DNA from: Escherichia virus TH44
DNA length: 64,000 nt
Reading direction: 5' to 3' (one strand)
Sequence record: MT446415.1
Shown piece after piece: positions 49,102-57,613 of the stretch. A program made the translations under genes and the position numbers. The first letter of the stretch is position 1. Every line of letters starts with the position of its first letter. The notes beneath the pieces were generated by a model. That model made no database searches. It worked only from the letters and a program-made list of their open reading frames with translations, and was not told the DNA's origin.

Positions 49102-49695
49102 ATGAATACTTTAAAGAAACTTGTTGAATTCATCCGCTCCAAACTGGGTACTGCAATGGCACAAAACCTGTCTATTGAAGACCAATATACTAAAGCTGCT
49201 TCTACCCTGATTGACAAGATTACTGAGCTCCAGACTGCCCATGTTAAGTCTGTTAATGAAGAAAAACGCATCCGCGAGTTAGCGAATGAAAAAGACCAGC
49301 TCGCCGCTTCAAAAGAGCGTGAAATCCGCAAACTGATTTCTGATGGTGCAGATGTTCAGGTCCATGCTAAACTGGGTCTTCTGTATCGTCGCACTGCTAA
49401 ACAACTTCGTAAGAAGGCAGATGATTATGTTGAAATGCGTAATGAAATTAAATTGAAAGTTAAAGAGCTGGATGACTCTCGTCAGGAACTAGCTGTTAAA
49501 CTGGAATACATCCGCGAAACCCGTAAGGTGTCTGCACTGGGTATTGCGACTGCAGATGATGTTGTTGAAATCGCTGCATTGACTAAGATTGATATTGAAG
49601 ACACCCTGATGCGTGTTGAAACCTTCAAAGGCCCACAGGTTGGTGTGGATACCACGTCCGCGGACATTGAAGAATACATCAATTCACTTAAGTAA
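49102..49695 (+). CDS. Coiled-coil protein (PspA-like pattern, tentative)
   Basis: 197 aa, long heptad-rich helices; family assignment is a guess from composition. Confidence 0.55.
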
Positions 49696-49737
49696 GATAA
49701 AGGGGGCTTTGCCCCCTAATTGGGAGAGGAGAATATT

Positions 49738-50292
49738 ATGAGCTTATATAATGACCTTATATCAAATGTAGAATGGTTTGGCGGTAGTGGTCTTGCTACT
49801 GAAACTAATACAGTTCTTTATAGAATCCGTGGTGACTTGGGTTATTCCAATGATTTCTTAAGAAGAACAACTAGCCGTGGACACACTACAAAATTGCCTT
49901 TTATTTTTGCTTTAGCTGAAGACCTTTCTTTCGCAGATGCCTTGGAAATTATTGATGTAAATCTGGGTATTCAACGAGTGGAATTCGGTGGGCTGAGTTA
50001 TTCCGTGTATGCGTTAAATGACCCAAGCGATTATAGGCAACTTATTAATGCGAACGATGATGACCATTTGGTGTGTTATTTGATGTTGGAAAATGGTGAC
50101 CACTTTGGAATGGTTGACCGCCGACCAGCTTATACTGATATTAAAAATTATGATAAAGATGAGCTTCTTGATTTGACGTCTGAGTACACATTAGAGAGTC
50201 GTAAACAAAAACGAAAGCTTAATCGTTTTATTGCTGAATGTCGTGAATATGCTAAAGAGGTTCAAAATGCGAACGTTATATCTGCCAAATAA
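49738..50292 (+). CDS. Hypothetical protein
   Basis: Trimmed start MSLYNDL with GGAGAGGAG RBS; 184 aa. Confidence 0.55.
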   Translation: MSLYNDLISNVEWFGGSGLATETNTVLYRIRGDLGYSNDFLRRTTSRGHTTKLPFIFALAEDLSFADALEIIDVNLGIQRVEFGGLSYSVYALNDPSDYRQLINANDDDHLVCYLMLENGDHFGMVDRRPAYTDIKNYDKDELLDLTSEYTLESRKQKRKLNRFIAECREYAKEVQNANVISAK

Positions 50293-50626
50293 ACCAGAAA
50301 AATTTGTATACGCAAACAAGATTGATAAAGACTTGATGCCTCCATTTGGAGCTTTGTCCATGTGCATCGTTGGGGTTATAATGATGGTGCTTTGTGGGGA
50401 TATGGATATCATTAGTGTCGGAGTCGCCTGGGCACTAATAATCGCAGCTCCTTTTATTACAGTCCTGAGCATGATTTTGATAAATGTGTGGCATCAAAAT
50501 CATATGAATAAAGGATATCGTGGGCGAGTTAAAGAGTGGGAACAAAAATGTATTTCCCTACAAGAAGAGCACAAAATTAAATGTGCAGAAGAATTTATCA
50601 AGGAGGTTCGTAATGGAACGGCCTAG
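50267..50626 (+). CDS. Membrane protein with C-terminal EEFIKEV motif
   Basis: Trimmed start MRTLYLPNKP (AAGAGG RBS); two hydrophobic helices. Confidence 0.55.
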   Translation: MRTLYLPNKPEKFVYANKIDKDLMPPFGALSMCIVGVIMMVLCGDMDIISVGVAWALIIAAPFITVLSMILINVWHQNHMNKGYRGRVKEWEQKCISLQEEHKIKCAEEFIKEVRNGTA

Positions 50627-50966
50627 TCTTGCATCACATGTTTATCAATTGGCTGAATATGATATTGGTGCCAGTTTATTATTAGGGATACCCACCGCCA
50701 TGCTTGGTGGTTTGGTTGGTCTGGTAATGACCACGGTTATGGCTGCAATCGAGGGAGTGATGCCCATTGAGATGGGTTTCTTTATGATAATCGCTCCGGC
50801 TGTTGTGTCTTATTTTATCCCTGTTGTGTATGATATCTGCCACACAAACGCCGTGAATGCTCCTAGTCGGAAGAGATATGCTTCAGCAATGGCTGAGTAT
50901 AATAAGTTCCTAGACAAAACAAAACGTAATGACCTTGAAACCTTTATTAAGGAATGTAAATCATGA
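50613..50966 (+). CDS. Membrane protein with C-terminal ETFIKECK motif
   Basis: Trimmed start MERPSLASHVYQ (AAGGAGG RBS); hydrophobic helices. Confidence 0.6.
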   Translation: MERPSLASHVYQLAEYDIGASLLLGIPTAMLGGLVGLVMTTVMAAIEGVMPIEMGFFMIIAPAVVSYFIPVVYDICHTNAVNAPSRKRYASAMAEYNKFLDKTKRNDLETFIKECKS

Positions 50967-51253
50967 ATAAAATTGAAATTGCTATCCCCAAGTATTATGA
51001 TGAGAAATCTGCAGAAAAAGCTATCTATTCTCTTCTAAATAAGACCTCTGAAATTGAAAAACACTGTGAAGAAATCGCAGATGAATATGGTATCGAATTC
51101 AGCACTGGCGATTACGGCACCGGCCGTACATATCACCCAGTCGGTTATGAATGTTCCGAATGGTTCGCTCACCATATTGAAAACAACGGCGGGCAAGTTG
51201 AAAACGGCATTGTTACTGTTGGTGCCTGGGTTTCCTCTTCTGAGGTGTGCTAA
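50963..51253 (+). CDS. Small protein, member 1 of W-x-S-S-x-x-C C-terminal family
   Basis: 96 aa ending GAWVSSSEVC. Confidence 0.6.
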   Translation: MNKIEIAIPKYYDEKSAEKAIYSLLNKTSEIEKHCEEIADEYGIEFSTGDYGTGRTYHPVGYECSEWFAHHIENNGGQVENGIVTVGAWVSSSEVC

Positions 51254-51254
51254 T

Positions 51255-51536
51255 ATGATGAATGATTACCGTAAAAATAAAGAACTGGCTAACGCAGTAA
51301 ATGATATCCATAAAGCTATTCGTCGTGCCGAGGAAATTGCAAACAAATATGAGACTCATTTTAATATATACCCTGCTCGCGGTATGGGCGGTGACTATTA
51401 TTCTCCTGGCGCCCTGAAAGCTGACCTTGCTCATTGGGAAGAACATGGTCATCCTGAATGGGCTATTGTTAATACTCATGACTATACAACTGACCTGGAA
51501 AAAGGCGGTTGGGTGTCCTCCTCTTCTGAATGTTAA
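51255..51536 (+). CDS. Small protein, member 2 of W-x-S-S-x-x-C C-terminal family
   Basis: Trimmed start MMNDYRK; 93 aa ending GGWVSSSSEC. Confidence 0.6.
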   Translation: MMNDYRKNKELANAVNDIHKAIRRAEEIANKYETHFNIYPARGMGGDYYSPGALKADLAHWEEHGHPEWAIVNTHDYTTDLEKGGWVSSSSEC

Positions 51537-51544
51537 GGAATGTT

Positions 51545-51742
51545 ATGTCTCGTGAATTAGATTGTGCAATCCGTACTGCTGCGGCAGCTATTGAAAACGT
51601 TATCCAGATTTGTAAAGAAGAGCGTGAAGAAGCTGATATCTATATTGACGGTCAGCGTAATCTGGAACGTCATATCACGCTTTATAATGGTTGTATTACA
51701 ATTAGTGGTACCTCTTGGGTGTCCTCCTCTTACGAATGCTAA
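51545..51742 (+). CDS. Small protein, member 3 of W-x-S-S-x-x-C C-terminal family
   Basis: Trimmed start MSRELDCAIR; 65 aa ending TSWVSSSYEC. Confidence 0.6.
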   Translation: MSRELDCAIRTAAAAIENVIQICKEEREEADIYIDGQRNLERHITLYNGCITISGTSWVSSSYEC

Positions 51743-51751
51743 GGAAATAAA

Positions 51752-51970
51752 ATGACTACTAAAACTGTTAAAGAAATTGAAGACCAAATCCGTGCACTAA
51801 TCTGTGAAGGTGAACAACTGGCCGATAAAACCGGCGAACACTTCTGTAGCGGTGGCGAAGAATATATTCCAGCTTCTAGTCCGGAATATAACGATTACGA
51901 ATGGGTTCGTGATGAATATTGTATTCCAGAAGGTGAAGGTTTCTGGTTTAACTCCTCTATGTCTTGCTAA
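51752..51970 (+). CDS. Small protein, member 4 of the family
   Basis: 72 aa ending GFWFNSSMSC. Confidence 0.6.
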   Translation: MTTKTVKEIEDQIRALICEGEQLADKTGEHFCSGGEEYIPASSPEYNDYEWVRDEYCIPEGEGFWFNSSMSC

Positions 51971-51979
51971 GGTGATAAA

Positions 51980-52213
51980 ATGACTACTGCTGTTGAACAT
52001 GCTGAATTAGAAAAAGCTGCCCTTGAACTGGCCGCGCTGTATAAGAAAGTAAAAGATATGGCTTTTGCTCAAGATTTCGGTGTCGAGCTTGATGATTATG
52101 ACGGCGAAGTTCGTCTTGAAGATTGGTTGAATAGCTCTTGTTACGGTGAAGAAGCTGGTCGTACCTTCGTTGCTCGTGCCGATGGTAAAATCTGGTATCC
52201 GAGTAGCTGCTAA
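51980..52213 (+). CDS. Small protein, member 5 of the family
   Basis: 77 aa ending KIWYPSSC. Confidence 0.6.
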   Translation: MTTAVEHAELEKAALELAALYKKVKDMAFAQDFGVELDDYDGEVRLEDWLNSSCYGEEAGRTFVARADGKIWYPSSC

Positions 52214-52316
52214 AATTATCACAAGGATGTGATAGGAGGACTTATGTGCAGAAATTTAGTGTACAAGCCTAAAGAAACGTAGTATCATTATCTCGTCAAC
52301 TAATGAGGAAAATATT

Positions 52317-52484
52317 ATGTATAATGTTCTTATTGTTTTTGTCACTCACCCGCAAGGTGGAGTAAGACAGAATACTTCTCAAGTGGTTCAATTTTCTTCA
52401 CTAGAGGCCGCCAATCTTGCTGCCTCACGAATTGAAGCGAAAAAATCGGCACTTGGAAAATATGAAGTAACTCGTCTTTACTAA
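52317..52484 (+). CDS. Small hypothetical protein (55 aa, below ORF-track cutoff)
   Basis: ATG 52317 preceded by conserved aatgaggaaaatattATG initiation region (also at 52485 and 53503). Confidence 0.45.
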   Translation: MYNVLIVFVTHPQGGVRQNTSQVVQFSSLEAANLAASRIEAKKSALGKYEVTRLY

Positions 52485-52497
52485 TGAGGAAAATATT

Positions 52498-53457
52498 ATG
52501 ATGTTAGTTATTGGTTCTCGTGCATTACATAACGCTGGTCTGATTGAAAGTCAGAAAATTGAAAACTCTGATTGGGACTTTATCGCTGACCAGGGTTCTT
52601 GGAACCACTTTAAAGCACGTATGTTCGGGGCTCATGTTCCTGTGGATAACCCTAACGTCCAAGCTTTTAAATGTATGTACAATGGCAAAGAAACCTATTT
52701 TGAAGCTTATATTGTCCGTGCCCTGACCAATGTCAGAGAAATTACTGGTGAGCTTCAAGACGAAGATTTCACCTCAAGTTATCGTCTCTTGAAATACGCT
52801 GAAAATCATATTAAGAAAGACCGTCTTACAGGTTTCTATTGGGCGACGCCTGATATTTGCCTGGCGATTAAATTGTCTCATCGTTACCTGAAGAACAATC
52901 CATTCTTCCTGAAGACCATGAGTCATATTAATTACCTTCGCAATAAGGGTGTTGTTCTTAATGATGAACTGCAAAAAATCATGCTACAGCGTCAGGCAGA
53001 AACATTGTCATATAGTCACCCTAAACTAGACGTGGGCAAGAAAACTTTCTTTAATGATACAATCTATACCCTTGACCATGACTCCATCCACGAGGCCGTG
53101 GCGCTTGCTGATAAGCCTGCATATAAGTTCTATATGAAGGATGATTCAGAAGTCATGACCTCACGTGAAAAATTTGAAGCACTCCCTGATGTTATTAAAC
53201 TGGCAGGGGTTTATGAAGAAGCATGTGTGCTCGCTCTGGAGCGTTCGCAGGTTCCTAATGAGTTCAATATCTCTCCATCCGTGAGCTTCCATGTTGCGCT
53301 GGAAAAAGTCTGCACCTCCATTACTTCTGGATGGTTCCGTGAGTACGCCTGGGAACATTACCAGGAAGTGGTTAATATGTATAACACCCTGGGTCGCGAA
53401 GACTATGTTAAACGCTTCAAGGCTAACCAACATTTAATTCGCCCTTTCACAAAATAA
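52498..53457 (+). CDS. Candidate nucleotidyltransferase-fold protein
   Basis: 319 aa; N-terminal LVIGSRAL ... SDWDFIAD resembles hG[GS]...DxD nucleotidyltransferase signature, with unusually long spacing. Confidence 0.6.
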   Translation: MMLVIGSRALHNAGLIESQKIENSDWDFIADQGSWNHFKARMFGAHVPVDNPNVQAFKCMYNGKETYFEAYIVRALTNVREITGELQDEDFTSSYRLLKYAENHIKKDRLTGFYWATPDICLAIKLSHRYLKNNPFFLKTMSHINYLRNKGVVLNDELQKIMLQRQAETLSYSHPKLDVGKKTFFNDTIYTLDHDSIHEAVALADKPAYKFYMKDDSEVMTSREKFEALPDVIKLAGVYEEACVLALERSQVPNEFNISPSVSFHVALEKVCTSITSGWFREYAWEHYQEVVNMYNTLGREDYVKRFKANQHLIRPFTK

Positions 53458-53460
53458 GTA

Positions 53461-53497
53461 TGTACATCCAAGTGGGACCATGACACAATGGTCCCAC
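53461..53497 (+). promoter_or_regulatory. Stem-loop cassette (inverted repeat GTGGGACCAT/ATGGTCCCAC)
   Basis: 10-bp arms; preceded by TGTACA -35-like element. Confidence 0.4.
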
Positions 53498-53516
53498 AAT
53501 CAATGAGGAAAATATT

Positions 53517-54203
53517 ATGAACAGTCCAAAAACTTTTAATTCTCAAGCTCGTGCAGTAGGCGGATTTGCAGGTCATATTTCTAATGATGATATTAAAAAC
53601 GAGCCTATGTTCTTTAACTGTGATTTGAATTTTGCTGCACAAAATGGCGGTCCTATTACTCGTAGCTTTATTACTAATCTCCCTGATGAGTGGAAAGCCG
53701 CTGAATGTGTATTTGATTCTCGGGTTCATATGTTGATGCCTGGTTGGTATCCTGCTATCCCAGGGTATCATCATGACGATGTACCACGCCCAGATATTCC
53801 GGTTGGTCAACACTTTATTACTGCAGGGCAACCTGATTATGATAATCCTCGTTACCATTCTGAACATATTCTTGGTCTTGTTAACGCTGATGTGTGTCCT
53901 ACTTATTTTGCAACCGGAACTGCACAATTTAGTCAGATTCCTGAAGGCGAACTTATCTATCGCCAGTGGCATAAAGAAGTTCTGGAAAAAATTGAGTCCA
54001 ATGAATTAACCAAGTGGGATGCTCCTGACCGTACGTTGCTCCAGTTTGATTGGCAGACATGGCATACAGGTTCTCGCGCAGTAAGTAATGGTTGGCGCTG
54101 GTTTGGTCGCGTATCTCGTAAAACTGACCGCGTTAATAAAATCACCAATGAAATTCGCGTTAATGCTCAAGTATATCTGGAATTCCCTATGGAGGGCTGG
54201 TAA
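53517..54203 (+). CDS. Hypothetical protein (His/Asp-rich core GYHHDDVPRPD)
   Basis: 228 aa; RBS GAGGAAAA. Confidence 0.6.
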   Translation: MNSPKTFNSQARAVGGFAGHISNDDIKNEPMFFNCDLNFAAQNGGPITRSFITNLPDEWKAAECVFDSRVHMLMPGWYPAIPGYHHDDVPRPDIPVGQHFITAGQPDYDNPRYHSEHILGLVNADVCPTYFATGTAQFSQIPEGELIYRQWHKEVLEKIESNELTKWDAPDRTLLQFDWQTWHTGSRAVSNGWRWFGRVSRKTDRVNKITNEIRVNAQVYLEFPMEGW

Positions 54204-54790
54204 TGGCCCTTTATGAACCTGGGTGTATGGGTGTTGATGTAAACTTCATCCGTCGCCCAGAAAATGCAGGAATTATTGTCTCAAGAGACGAATTTATGAT
54301 TACCAAAAGATATTGGGCGGACCTTGATGATGGTGATGAAGGAATCAAGGTTGAAAACGTTGATTGGTCGCGATGCAATCGTCATGTGAAAGAGCTTTTA
54401 ATTAAGGAATATAAAATGGGATATATTGTTAATGGGTATCAACCGGAACCACTCAAAGAACAGACACCCGACCCATTAATTTCTTATAGCAAGAAATATG
54501 GATTTCGTACCTGGAGTGATGAATTTGATAAGTTAATTTGTTCCAGGTTTTATGCCTGGTCTGGAATCTTATTTTTACCATTCCTGTGGTTTTTCCTGAC
54601 AGGTAAAAATGAAGCATCTGTAGCTGTAATGGGCGCGTGCTTTTCTACTGCTCTTGCTGGACTTATTGCATCATTTTTATGGACTATGGTTATTGAAGTA
54701 CCTTTTCGTATTTCTAAAGTTAAAAAGGTGTACGACGATATCACTAAGAAAAATACATTGAACTCTTTTATTGAGGAATGCCGTAAATGA
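54203..54790 (+). CDS. Membrane protein with C-terminal NSFIEECRK motif
   Basis: 195 aa; start overlaps previous stop (TAATG); hydrophobic helices near C-terminus. Confidence 0.6.
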   Translation: MALYEPGCMGVDVNFIRRPENAGIIVSRDEFMITKRYWADLDDGDEGIKVENVDWSRCNRHVKELLIKEYKMGYIVNGYQPEPLKEQTPDPLISYSKKYGFRTWSDEFDKLICSRFYAWSGILFLPFLWFFLTGKNEASVAVMGACFSTALAGLIASFLWTMVIEVPFRISKVKKVYDDITKKNTLNSFIEECRK

Positions 54791-55023
54791 GTATTGCAAT
54801 TTATATTAAATCCGAGTCATGTGATTCTTATCTGTATTCCTATGACACCGGAACATCAGAAGAGAAAATCAAAGAAGATTTAGAAAGTGATTTGGATATG
54901 TTCTGCCCAATTTCCGATTATATGGTCCAAATATCTGATAGTGAAAGTCCGTCAACAGAAACACGCGTTGAAATTATTATGGCCGAAATCTTTAAAAAAT
55001 CTTGGGAACGTGATGATGAGTAA
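54787..55023 (+). CDS. Hypothetical acidic small protein
   Basis: 78 aa, translationally coupled to upstream gene. Confidence 0.5.
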   Translation: MSIAIYIKSESCDSYLYSYDTGTSEEKIKEDLESDLDMFCPISDYMVQISDSESPSTETRVEIIMAEIFKKSWERDDE

Positions 55024-55468
55024 GAAAGTGAAGGAATTATCTGCTGGCATTATTTTCATGACCGAAGATAAAGAGTTATTCATGGGTCGTGTGACTGGTT
55101 CTCGTAAACCAGGTATGCCTGCGCACAAATGGGACATCCCTAAGGGTCATGTTGAAGCTGGCGAATCACCGATTGAAGCTGCTATCCGTGAAACCGAAGA
55201 AGAAACTGGGTTTACCCAATACGACCCGGCATTCTTAAAAGACCTCGGTGAATTCCGTTATTCAGATAATAAAAACCTTCACCTGTTTTTATATACGGTT
55301 CCGGTTGAGCATGAACAATTCAGACATAGTAAATGCTCTGCATATCATACCTTCCCGGATGGTAGTACGGTCCCAGAGTTCGATGCATTTGCTCTGATTA
55401 AACCGAGCCAATGGCAGTATGTGATGGGCAAATCGATGTACAAGGTAATGACTCAAATTTTCGGATAA
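55013..55468 (+). CDS. nudE: Nudix hydrolase NudE
   Basis: Nudix box GHVEAGESPIEAAIRETEEETG; trimmed to ATG 55013; immediately upstream of e as in T4. Confidence 0.85.
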   Translation: MMSKKVKELSAGIIFMTEDKELFMGRVTGSRKPGMPAHKWDIPKGHVEAGESPIEAAIRETEEETGFTQYDPAFLKDLGEFRYSDNKNLHLFLYTVPVEHEQFRHSKCSAYHTFPDGSTVPEFDAFALIKPSQWQYVMGKSMYKVMTQIFG

Positions 55469-55994: not shown

Positions 55995-56264
55995 ATGAAA
56001 ACGTATCAAGAATTTTTGGCTGAATCTGTATTAAATGAATCAGATGAAAGTCGCATGGCATTTTTAGCTAAGAAAGAAGGCTTTGAGTTTACTTCTATTA
56101 AAAAAGTTAATGGAACTTCATTTAAAGTTGGTGATTGGACCTTTGGTAACAAAGGAAATGGCCAGTGGCAAATTGTAGATAAATCTGGCAAAGAAGTGGA
56201 TTATTTGTTTAATCAGAAATTGGGTGATATCGCTAAACTTATGGGTCAATACTCTAAGAAATGA
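55995..56264 (+). CDS. Internal-protein-like small protein
   Basis: 89 aa; N-terminus MKTYQEFLAES. Confidence 0.7.
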   Translation: MKTYQEFLAESVLNESDESRMAFLAKKEGFEFTSIKKVNGTSFKVGDWTFGNKGNGQWQIVDKSGKEVDYLFNQKLGDIAKLMGQYSKK

Positions 56265-56301
56265 TGTACATCTCCAAACGATAGGGTTATAATGACCCTA
56301 T
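56264..56301 (+). promoter_or_regulatory. Early promoter stem-loop cassette upstream of denV
   Basis: -35-like ATGTAC; inverted repeat ATAGGGT/ACCCTAT with TATAAT in loop. Confidence 0.5.
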
Positions 56302-56319
56302 CAACTACGGAGAATAAAC

Positions 56320-56736
56320 ATGACTCGTATTAATTTAACCCTGGTATCTGAACTTGCCGACCAACATCTTATGGCTGAATACCGTGAACTTCCTCGCGTG
56401 TTTGGTGCGGTTCGTAAGCATGTGCAAAATGGTAAAAAGGTTTCTGACTTTAAAATCCCATCATCTTTTCTTTTAGGGACTGGTCATGTCACCTTCTTTT
56501 ATGATAAACTTTTGTTCCTTAAAAACCGCCATCAAGAACTTATTGCGGAATGTTTAAAGCGAGGGTTTAACATAAAAGATATTTCTACCCAGGATTTAAA
56601 TGATATTCCTGATGAATGGAAGAATGATTATCAACCATCAATCTGGTCAATTGAAATCAGTCAAGCCAGACTGAATGAGAAAATTTCTCAAAAGCCTACC
56701 TGGTACAAATACTATGGGAAAGCTGTGTACGCTTAA
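56320..56736 (+). CDS. denV: Endonuclease V (pyrimidine dimer DNA glycosylase/AP lyase)
   Basis: 138 aa; [35 protein letters not shown]...[10 protein letters not shown]...[10 protein letters not shown] closely resembles recalled T4 DenV. Confidence 0.95.
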
Positions 56737-56784
56737 TTAAAAAGGTTGTATAATGATTTTATCAACCAAACAATGGAATATAAA

Positions 56785-57048
56785 ATGAAAACTTATCAAG
56801 AATTTATTACTGAATCTGCCAAAGCTCCTGCTGGTTCTTTTAAAGTTCGCGCCTTCGCGGGTGATGCTGAAGACTTTGGCACCATGAAGCGTAACGGTTA
56901 TTCTTTCTTTGGCGGAGATGGTAAAGAAATTGTAACCTATGCAAAACGTCGCGAAATCGCATTTGTGGTTGCTGGTAAGAAAGTTGATGTTGACGATATT
57001 GAATGGGACTTTGAGACCTTTGGTATTGTTTCTGGCGGTAAAGCATAA
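56785..57048 (+). CDS. Internal-protein-like small protein
   Basis: Trimmed start MKTYQEFITESAKAPAGS; TATAAT promoter upstream. Confidence 0.7.
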   Translation: MKTYQEFITESAKAPAGSFKVRAFAGDAEDFGTMKRNGYSFFGGDGKEIVTYAKRREIAFVVAGKKVDVDDIEWDFETFGIVSGGKA

Positions 57049-57050
57049 CT

Positions 57051-57087
57051 GTTTACTTTATGATGGGATAGTGTATAATTATCCCAT
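57051..57087 (+). promoter_or_regulatory. Early promoter stem-loop cassette (PeSL-like)
   Basis: -35 GTTTAC, 17-nt spacer, TATAAT in loop of ATGGGATA/TATCCCAT. Confidence 0.55.
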
Positions 57088-57107
57088 CAACTACTGAGGA
57101 GAATAAA

Positions 57108-57305
57108 ATGTTAACTTATAAAGAATTTATGAAAGAAGTTAAAAAACTTAAAAAGACTTCTGGTGATGTTAAAATTGAAATCCATGGCCAAACCGTAAAT
57201 GCGGTAGCGGATGGTCAGGCATTAGTTCTTTATAGTGATAAAGACCAAGAATTTCGCGAAGCACAAAAGAAAAAATTTACCGTGTGGCTCAAAAAAGCTG
57301 TTTAA
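57108..57305 (+). CDS. Small basic protein with IP-like N-terminus (MLTYKEFMKE)
   Basis: 65 aa; GGAG RBS. Confidence 0.6.
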   Translation: MLTYKEFMKEVKKLKKTSGDVKIEIHGQTVNAVADGQALVLYSDKDQEFREAQKKKFTVWLKKAV

Positions 57306-57313
57306 GGACCAAT

Positions 57314-57613
57314 ATGAAAACTTATCAAGAATTTATCACAGAAGCCAAAGCCCCTAAAGCATTCCAAATTGGAGTCCAAGGCAATTTAGACCAACAATAT
57401 GTTGATGCTATTGTAGCAAGCCTCGGTAAACAGGGTGTACAAGTGGATTTGGTTGATTTTACTAAAGGCAATACTTTTAATATTGTCACATCTAAAGGTT
57501 CTTTAGCTAAAGTTAAAAAGGCCTTTGGTGTAGCACAAGCATATGAAATCGACCACTCTGAATTGGAAAATAAAGGTCGCCAGAACACAATTAAAGGTTC
57601 TGGTTCTTTCTAA
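57314..57613 (+). CDS. Internal-protein-like small protein
   Basis: Trimmed start MKTYQEFITEAKAPKAF; 99 aa. Confidence 0.7.
   Translation: MKTYQEFITEAKAPKAFQIGVQGNLDQQYVDAIVASLGKQGVQVDLVDFTKGNTFNIVTSKGSLAKVKKAFGVAQAYEIDHSELENKGRQNTIKGSGSF

Follow-up and report, generated by a model that had tools for sequence, protein, structure and literature searches.

A predicted phage nucleotidyltransferase and its conserved upstream partners, small proteins that end in a Cys-terminated tail

In a 64,000-nt stretch of the Escherichia virus TH44 genome (MT446415.1; hereafter the window), from a T4-like phage of E. coli (genus Gaprivervirus), we have analysed three consecutive genes that an initial annotation had grouped as a possible nucleotide-modifying or signalling-interference module: a protein with a nucleotidyltransferase signature (P1), a His/Asp-rich protein (P2) and a membrane protein (P3). 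The conserved partner of P1 across phage lineages is not P2 or P3, but an array of genes upstream of P1 whose small products end in a conserved, cysteine-terminated tail (the Cys-tail proteins). This array, treated as a landmark only in the initial annotation, together with P1 points to an undescribed enzyme-plus-tail system. Labels at the level of the fold are by themselves already in the records: phage EAWsc9 carries the names 'nucleotidyltransferase' and 'phytanoyl-CoA dioxygenase', phage PhaR5 carries 'putative nucleotidyltransferase', and P2 has a UniRef name. A literature search found no paper on the Pfam families of P1 (DUF7275 and DUF7277), on the Cys-tail proteins or on their pairing.

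The gene order, 5' to 3', is five Cys-tail open reading frames (ORFs; 50963-52213), a 55-aa ORF, P1, P2, P3 and nudE. The ORFs of P1, P2 and P3 were all confirmed at their original coordinates on the + strand, and the block does lie downstream of the Cys-tail array and upstream of nudE, as had been described. The array and P1 are as follows.

50963..51253, + strand: Cys-tail protein 1, 96 aa, ending ...GAWVSSSEVC (phrog_899, E = 1.3e-21)
51255..51536, + strand: Cys-tail protein 2, 93 aa, ending ...GGWVSSSSEC (phrog_899, E = 8.9e-20)
51545..51742, + strand: Cys-tail protein 3, 65 aa (70 aa if the start is at 51530), ending ...TSWVSSSYEC (phrog_4882, E = 2.3e-36)
51752..51970, + strand: Cys-tail protein 4, 72 aa, ending ...GFWFNSSMSC (phrog_899, E = 3.4e-11)
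51980..52213, + strand: Cys-tail protein 5, 77 aa, short-tail class, ending ...KIWYPSSC (phrog_899, E = 6.5e-9)
52498..53457, + strand: P1, predicted nucleotidyltransferase-fold enzyme, 319 aa, with a DUF7277 core (approximately residues 1-115) and a DUF7275 helical domain (residues 120-305)

Genomic coupling between P1 and the tail genes was assessed in two sets of 80 viral loci, one centred on P1 homologs and the other on P2 homologs, each locus extending 6 kb to either side; a partner encoded farther away in the genome would escape these counts. The tail pattern was defined as W-x-[S/A/P]-S-[S/A/N]-x-x-C or W-x-x-S-S-C at the end of an ORF. Same-strand ORFs with this pattern lie within 3.5 kb upstream of P1 in 74 of the 80 P1 loci, with a median gap to P1 of 387 nt, and a 75th locus carries the tail variant WDSSTC. 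Between one and five tail genes are present in each of these 75 loci, and elsewhere in the P1 loci the pattern occurs in only 4 of 8137 ORFs. The P2-anchored loci divide along the same line: tail ORFs are found in all 23 that contain P1 and in none of the 57 that do not. With P1 clades defined at 60% identity, the tail family is the sole real gene cluster found in five or more of the 17 clades, which include jumbo-phage contigs of 350–370 kb as well as others of ~98 kb and 150 kb; the only other cluster recovered across the clades is an antisense artefact inside P1. The association also holds in the reverse direction, where all four distant tail proteins retrieved with a tail profile have a DUF7275 gene 0–620 nt downstream.

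Among the 485 ORFs of the window, the tail pattern is confined to the array, with four of the five ORFs matching and the remaining one, Cys-tail protein 4, carrying the variant FWFNSSMSC. The Cys-tail proteins are small and acidic, and an alignment reveals a shared plan: an N-terminal helix ending in A-E-x-x-A-D-E-x-G, then the loop Y-G-x-G-x-T-Y-x-P, then a variable acidic linker, and finally a C-terminal tail of the form G-x-W-x-S-S-S-x-x-Cys or W-x-x-S-S-Cys. Within the tail only the tryptophan, one serine and the cysteine are invariant, with a second serine present in at least 90% of the sequences. When the last 12 residues are removed, 156 of the 186 unique proteins still join one blastp cluster. 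The ATG start of Cys-tail protein 2 agrees with the annotated CDS of phage EAWsc9, and homologs of this protein are present in 281 phage records. Cys-tail protein 5 has an additional internal DWLNSSC, and its short-tail class is found again in many loci. That several paralogs per genome vary everywhere except in their last eight residues is a pattern typical of an enzyme recognition site and argues for a role of the tails as substrates.

P1 begins MMLVIGSRAL...NSDWDFIA and so carries, as G6-S7 ... D25-W-D27, the G-S ... D-W-D pattern from which a nucleotidyltransferase had been proposed. Pfam places DUF7277 at residues 2–101 (E = 2.3e-26, 92.8 bits) and DUF7275 at residues 120–305 (E = 1.3e-75, 253.9 bits), each with a gathering cut-off of 27. 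An AlphaFold2 model built from 53 homologs (pLDDT 92, pTM 0.87) contains the α/β core of the DNA polymerase β-type nucleotidyltransferase superfamily. The model is closest to the MenT1, ANT(2'') and LnuA nucleotidyltransferases, with MenT1 and the MenAT1 complex as the best structural matches; Foldseek assigns the MenT1 match a probability of 1.0. In the model, G6-S7 forms the turn between strand 2–5 and helix 6–12, and the D-W-D motif lies at the start of strand 26–31. Comparisons by sequence were uninformative: searches of P1, P2 and a tail profile against the PDB gave chance-level matches only, and P1 against NCBIfam gave nothing credible.

Conservation of P1 residues was counted in 147 representatives that are 34–48% identical to P1 (alignment A4). 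The putative catalytic residues are retained, with G6 in 147 of 147, S7 in 143, D25 in 145 (glutamate in the other two) and D27 in all 147. A third carboxylate, E69 in the window, is E or D in 145 of the 147 sequences of A4, where the window residue itself is displaced by a lineage-specific insertion, and is invariant in a second alignment (A1). Conservation across so many divergent homologs shows that the G-S ... D-W-D motif is not a chance pattern. Constraint is stronger still in the helical C-terminal half than in the N-terminal core: K125, H128, K139, H194, D195, H198, E240, E241, E248, R249, G278 and R281 of DUF7275 are invariant in all 147 sequences. Structure comparison gave no convincing match of this half to solved folds. 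The modelled fold and the conserved acidic residues together argue that P1 is a DNA polymerase β-type nucleotidyltransferase superfamily member with an active site that is intact as judged from its residues, composed of a minimal MenT/ANT/Lnu-like core and a family-specific helical domain. Neither of the two findings named in the initial annotation as refuting the nucleotidyltransferase call, a different predicted fold or unconserved acidic residues, was obtained.

The P1 family comprises 1990 clusters at 90% identity and 1606 at 50% identity. Homologs occur in 731 phage records, including non-T4-like phages, and in ~1.4% of sequenced phage genomes, among them T4-like, jumbo and other virulent phages. 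Only 5 loci among 185,579 cellular species genomes contain a homolog; all five are on contigs of metagenome-assembled genomes, and tails are present in four of them. The family is essentially restricted to viruses. Its architecture is uniform, the 150 clusters listed of the 1606 being single matches of ~300 aa without a large added domain, and no fusions between P1 and a tail protein are present among the 120 and 150 homologs listed. We also considered the arabinosyl-5-hydroxycytosine DNA modification of RB69-like phages and rejected a link, because the published cluster (RB69 gp45-55) is a different locus with a sugar-nucleotidyltransferase-type enzyme and because the P1 family is found in phage groups unrelated to RB69.

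What might P1 do with the tails? Our tentative proposal, to which we assign somewhat less than an even chance, is that P1 and the Cys-tail proteins act as one functional unit in which P1 binds the tails and nucleotidylylates a tail serine or cysteine. The conserved tail would be bound in the P1 active site or close to it, and P1 would use a nucleoside triphosphate to link a nucleotide-derived group, by a phosphodiester bond, to one of the tail serines or the terminal cysteine. The tail paralogs would then be several substrates or effectors with a common requirement for this modification. Small proteins are modified by enzymes of this fold in several systems: GlnD acts on PII, GlnE on glutamine synthetase, CitX on CitD, MdcG on MdcC and MntA on HepT. 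The proposed logic is the same, in that a polymerase β-fold transferase joins a nucleotide-derived group by a phosphodiester to a side chain in a small partner protein, but no sequence or structural match between P1 and any of these five enzymes was obtained, and no W-x-S-S-S-x-x-Cys acceptor motif is known for them.

Several points weigh against a tail-modifying P1. MenT1, the closest solved structure, is a tRNA 3'-end cytidylyltransferase and targets tRNA 3' ends rather than proteins (PMC10435456), and a small upstream gene followed by a nucleotidyltransferase gene is also the layout of MenA/MenT toxin-antitoxin pairs. The internal copy of the motif in the short-tail class suggests that a free C-terminus may not be essential. 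A few P1 loci (L026, L046 and L048) contain no tail gene within 3.5 kb, and L058, a relative of the latter two, likewise has no tail ORF in this interval.

These exceptional loci have some features of their own. In L058, L046 and L048, an ORF of 66–67 aa ending in ...RWTTC or ...LWSKC is located 4.5 kb upstream. The P1 homolog of L058 (5824-6750) is split into two ORFs of 55 and 209 aa and is probably a pseudogene or the product of a sequencing error. L026 (IMG/VR contig 650627040) has no intact tail ORF; an upstream ORF there ends in ...CYSSSTF and may be a decayed tail.

The main rival to tail modification is an inhibitor reading that we regard as unlikely, in which the locus would be toxin-antitoxin-like: P1 would be a MenT1-like nucleotidyltransferase of RNA or tRNA 3' ends, with host or phage tRNA as its target, and the tail proteins would be MenA1-like inhibitors or regulators that plug its active site. 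This reading draws on the best structural matches of the P1 model being MenT1 and the MenAT1 complex, on the long helix at the start of the tail proteins and on the proximity of the region to phage tRNA genes in VR7. MenA1 is itself helical, has 68 aa and is encoded upstream of MenT1, whose active site it blocks (PMC10435456). An antitoxin would not, however, be expected to occur as up to six divergent paralogs per genome, and conservation in the tail proteins peaks at the extreme C-terminal tail rather than in the helix, whereas MenA1 binds by its helix and has a disordered C-terminus. Judged by Pfam AbiEii and by the C-terminal motifs III and IV, P1 is not recognised as a DUF1814/AbiEii/MenT toxin, and none of the 147 P1 family members matches Pfam AbiEii/DUF1814 at E <= 5. 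Relative to MenT1/MenAT1 of M. tuberculosis (DUF1814; PDB 8an4, 8an5), P1 is only 8–10% identical and has a large conserved domain that MenT1 lacks, amounting to ~120 extra residues that bear 12 invariant polar residues; it is also virus-restricted and accompanied by up to six upstream paralogs with the conserved Cys-terminated tail. The invariant K125 of P1 is a candidate counterpart of the MenT motif lysine. It is distinctly less likely that P1 and the tails constitute a phage maturation system, one whose targets are small folded proteins, not peptides with a leader, and that yields either a stable peptidyl-nucleotide or a serine activated for elimination. In a thioether variant of this scheme, the serine would be eliminated and the invariant terminal cysteine would close a ring, a lanthionine-like chemistry with a nucleotidyltransferase in place of the kinase or glutamyl-tRNA enzyme; a second catalytic site would come from the His, Asp, Glu and Cys residues that are invariant in DUF7275, and the modified paralogs would act as host-takeover or counter-defence effectors. 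The likeness to the core peptide of a ribosome-made peptide that is modified after translation (RiPP) is limited to the Ser...Cys tail, and Pfam searches of P1, P2 and P3, of the tail array and of the ORFs at 49102-50966 gave no match to enzymes of lanthipeptide-type or other such pathways (dehydratase, cyclase, YcaO or radical-SAM).

Two further alternatives discard the pairing altogether. P1 might act on a small molecule as ANT(2'') and LnuA do, for example by inactivating an anti-phage metabolite or an antibiotic, with the tail genes as unrelated travellers. We consider this very unlikely: hitch-hiking provides no explanation for a linkage between tails and P1 that spans 17 clades, holds in both directions and is shared with no other conserved neighbour, and ANT(2'')-Ia (AadB) and LnuA, which have small-molecule substrates, differ from P1 in having neither a conserved protein partner nor a DUF7275-type domain. 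The grouping originally proposed, in which P1, P2 and the membrane protein P3, a member of the T4 e.2 family, form one nucleotide-modifying or immune-signal-interference module, seems to us highly improbable. The three genes are tightly packed in this phage, with a 59-nt gap between P1 and P2 and a one-base overlap of the P2 stop with the P3 start. Nevertheless, of the 80 P1 loci no more than 23 have P2 within 6 kb of P1 and 14 have e.2 there, 57 of the 80 P2-anchored loci have no P1, and T4 has e.2 but neither P1 nor P2. Other genes often separate P1 from P2, even in close relatives, and no conserved partner of P2 emerged from clustering all ORFs. These synteny counts, the inserted genes and the lack of a conserved P2 neighbour leave the module unsupported. 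PADLOC, whose models describe defence systems and not counter-defence proteins, likewise gave no credible match (best E = 0.018). That P2 and P3 lie next to P1 reflects lineage-specific synteny within the variable e-segB region.

Note that two jumbo-type contigs carry a gene resembling polynucleotide kinase-phosphatase (AAA_33 + HAD_PNKP; L168 1-850 and L169 711-1640) ~3 kb upstream of the tail/P1 pair, an arrangement that may bear on the RNA-end alternative.

The genes 3' of P1, and the ORFs upstream of the array that are related to P3, are as follows.

53517..54203, + strand: P2, predicted stand-alone Fe(II)/2-oxoglutarate dioxygenase with a PhyH-like jelly-roll, 228 aa; candidate ligands H86-x-D88 (or H85-x-D87), H183 and R194
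54203..54790, + strand: P3, T4 e.2-family membrane protein, 195 aa, two transmembrane helices, ending ...NSFIEECRK (phrog_2203, E = 3.2e-65, residues 32-195)
50613-50966: e.3/e.4-family ORF, ending ...ETFIKECKS
50267-50626: e.3/e.4-family ORF, ending ...EEFIKEVRNGTA, with V replacing C

The GYHHDD core of P2 that had attracted attention is real, and it is the notion of P2 as a partner of P1 that did not stand. P2 carries PGYHHDD, and its H85, H86, D87, D88, H183, R194 and R198 do not vary among 51 homologs. Its predicted structure has the double-stranded β-helix fold, an H-x-D/E ... H iron triad and a basic residue for the 2-oxoglutarate carboxylate are present, and P2 is identified as an Fe(II)/2-oxoglutarate dioxygenase in which the GYHHDD sequence holds the H-x-D iron ligands. 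The distal His and Arg are separated by 11 residues, which is also the spacing in human PAHX. No match at E <= 1 was obtained for P2 against the curated families of Pfam and NCBIfam, including PhyH and 2OG-FeII_Oxy. P2 differs from PhyH/EctD/EasH-type dioxygenases in its compactness (228 aa), in this lack of a Pfam family match and in its unusually high conservation among phages, the 120 matches listed out of 1286 being no less than 68% identical.

An extra gene lies between P1 and P2 in VR7 (L082 5661-6311), in L004, L009 and L011, and in others; the presence of such genes in close relatives marks the P1–P2 junction as an insertion hot spot. Annotated as a restriction endonuclease, the VR7 insert is possibly a homing endonuclease. 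In 8 divergent loci only, a NAMPT-like nicotinamide phosphoribosyltransferase gene (490 aa) is found ~1.4 kb upstream of P2 (for example, L129 4107-5567). In the window, P2 is near the Nudix gene nudE; a connection with NAD metabolism is conceivable.

P3 and the ORFs at 50613 and 50267 do share a C-terminal motif, as had been noticed, with V in place of C in the latter, but it is the mark of an ordinary family of T4 genes. These two ORFs are e.3 and e.4, and all three proteins are orthologous to T4 e.2/e.3/e.4 by PHROG match and VR7 annotation, with no notable difference. The VR7 ortholog of P3 is annotated as e.2 (similar to T4 e.2) and has 164 aa; the true start of P3 may be Met32 (54296). 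Blastp matches among these proteins have E = 2e-4 and 5e-6, and the PHROG families cross-match. The products of e.2, e.3 and e.4 are distant paralogs with a two-transmembrane layout and a C-terminal x-F-I-x-E-C-(K/R) helix, a relationship that is weak but real. The F-I-x-E-C-R motif of e.2/e.3/e.4 is also present near the C-terminus of a non-membrane ORF (49738-50292, 184 aa, phrog_8788; NRFIAECRE / ...KLNRFIAECREYAKE) that precedes the e.2/e.3/e.4 membrane-protein ORFs. In L026 (6952-8363), four consecutive e.2/e.3/e.4-like ORFs ending in FINDCRK, FITECRG, FISRCRIK and FIQGIRG lie directly 3' of P1. One GenBank record labels an e.2/e.3/e.4-type protein 'holin', a name that is unverified.

The flagged stretch is 93–95% identical to phages VR20, TH41 and P479. 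Relative to T4, a block containing the five tail genes, the small ORF, P1 and P2 is placed between e.3 and e.2, and the flagged genes are followed on the 3' side by nudE (55013-55468; Pfam NUDIX, E = 2.6e-16), lysozyme e and denV. The small ORF stands between the array and P1.

52317..52484, + strand: small ORF, 55 aa, phrog_20278, without a Pfam match

This ORF is seen in only a few close relatives and is probably outside the P1/tail module. A 21-nt repeat, actaatgaggaaaatattatg, containing a stop, a ribosome-binding site and a start, precedes both the 55-aa ORF (52297-52319) and P1 (52483-52500), and this shared sequence suggests that the small ORF was created by local duplication or insertion. 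Further upstream, a perfect, GC-rich and terminator-like hairpin (AGGGGGC-AAA-GCCCCCT, - strand, 49701-49717) sits between an ORF ending at 49695 and the ORF starting at 49738. A promoter scan returned no more sites than were found in shuffled sequence. At 55995-57613, several small ORFs start with MKTYQEF(I/L)(A/T)E, which resembles the capsid-targeting sequence of T4 internal proteins, and their VR7 counterparts are annotated as ip7, ip10 and internal head protein.

The analysis corrects the gene grouping at this locus, where the dioxygenase P2 and e.2 are to be treated apart from P1. It also joins two sets of 'hypothetical proteins', a family without an assigned function and the tail arrays that accompany it, into one testable hypothesis of an enzyme and its substrates or regulators. 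If the tails are indeed modified, protein nucleotidylylation would gain a new acceptor motif, and viruses possibly a new way to make modified peptides.

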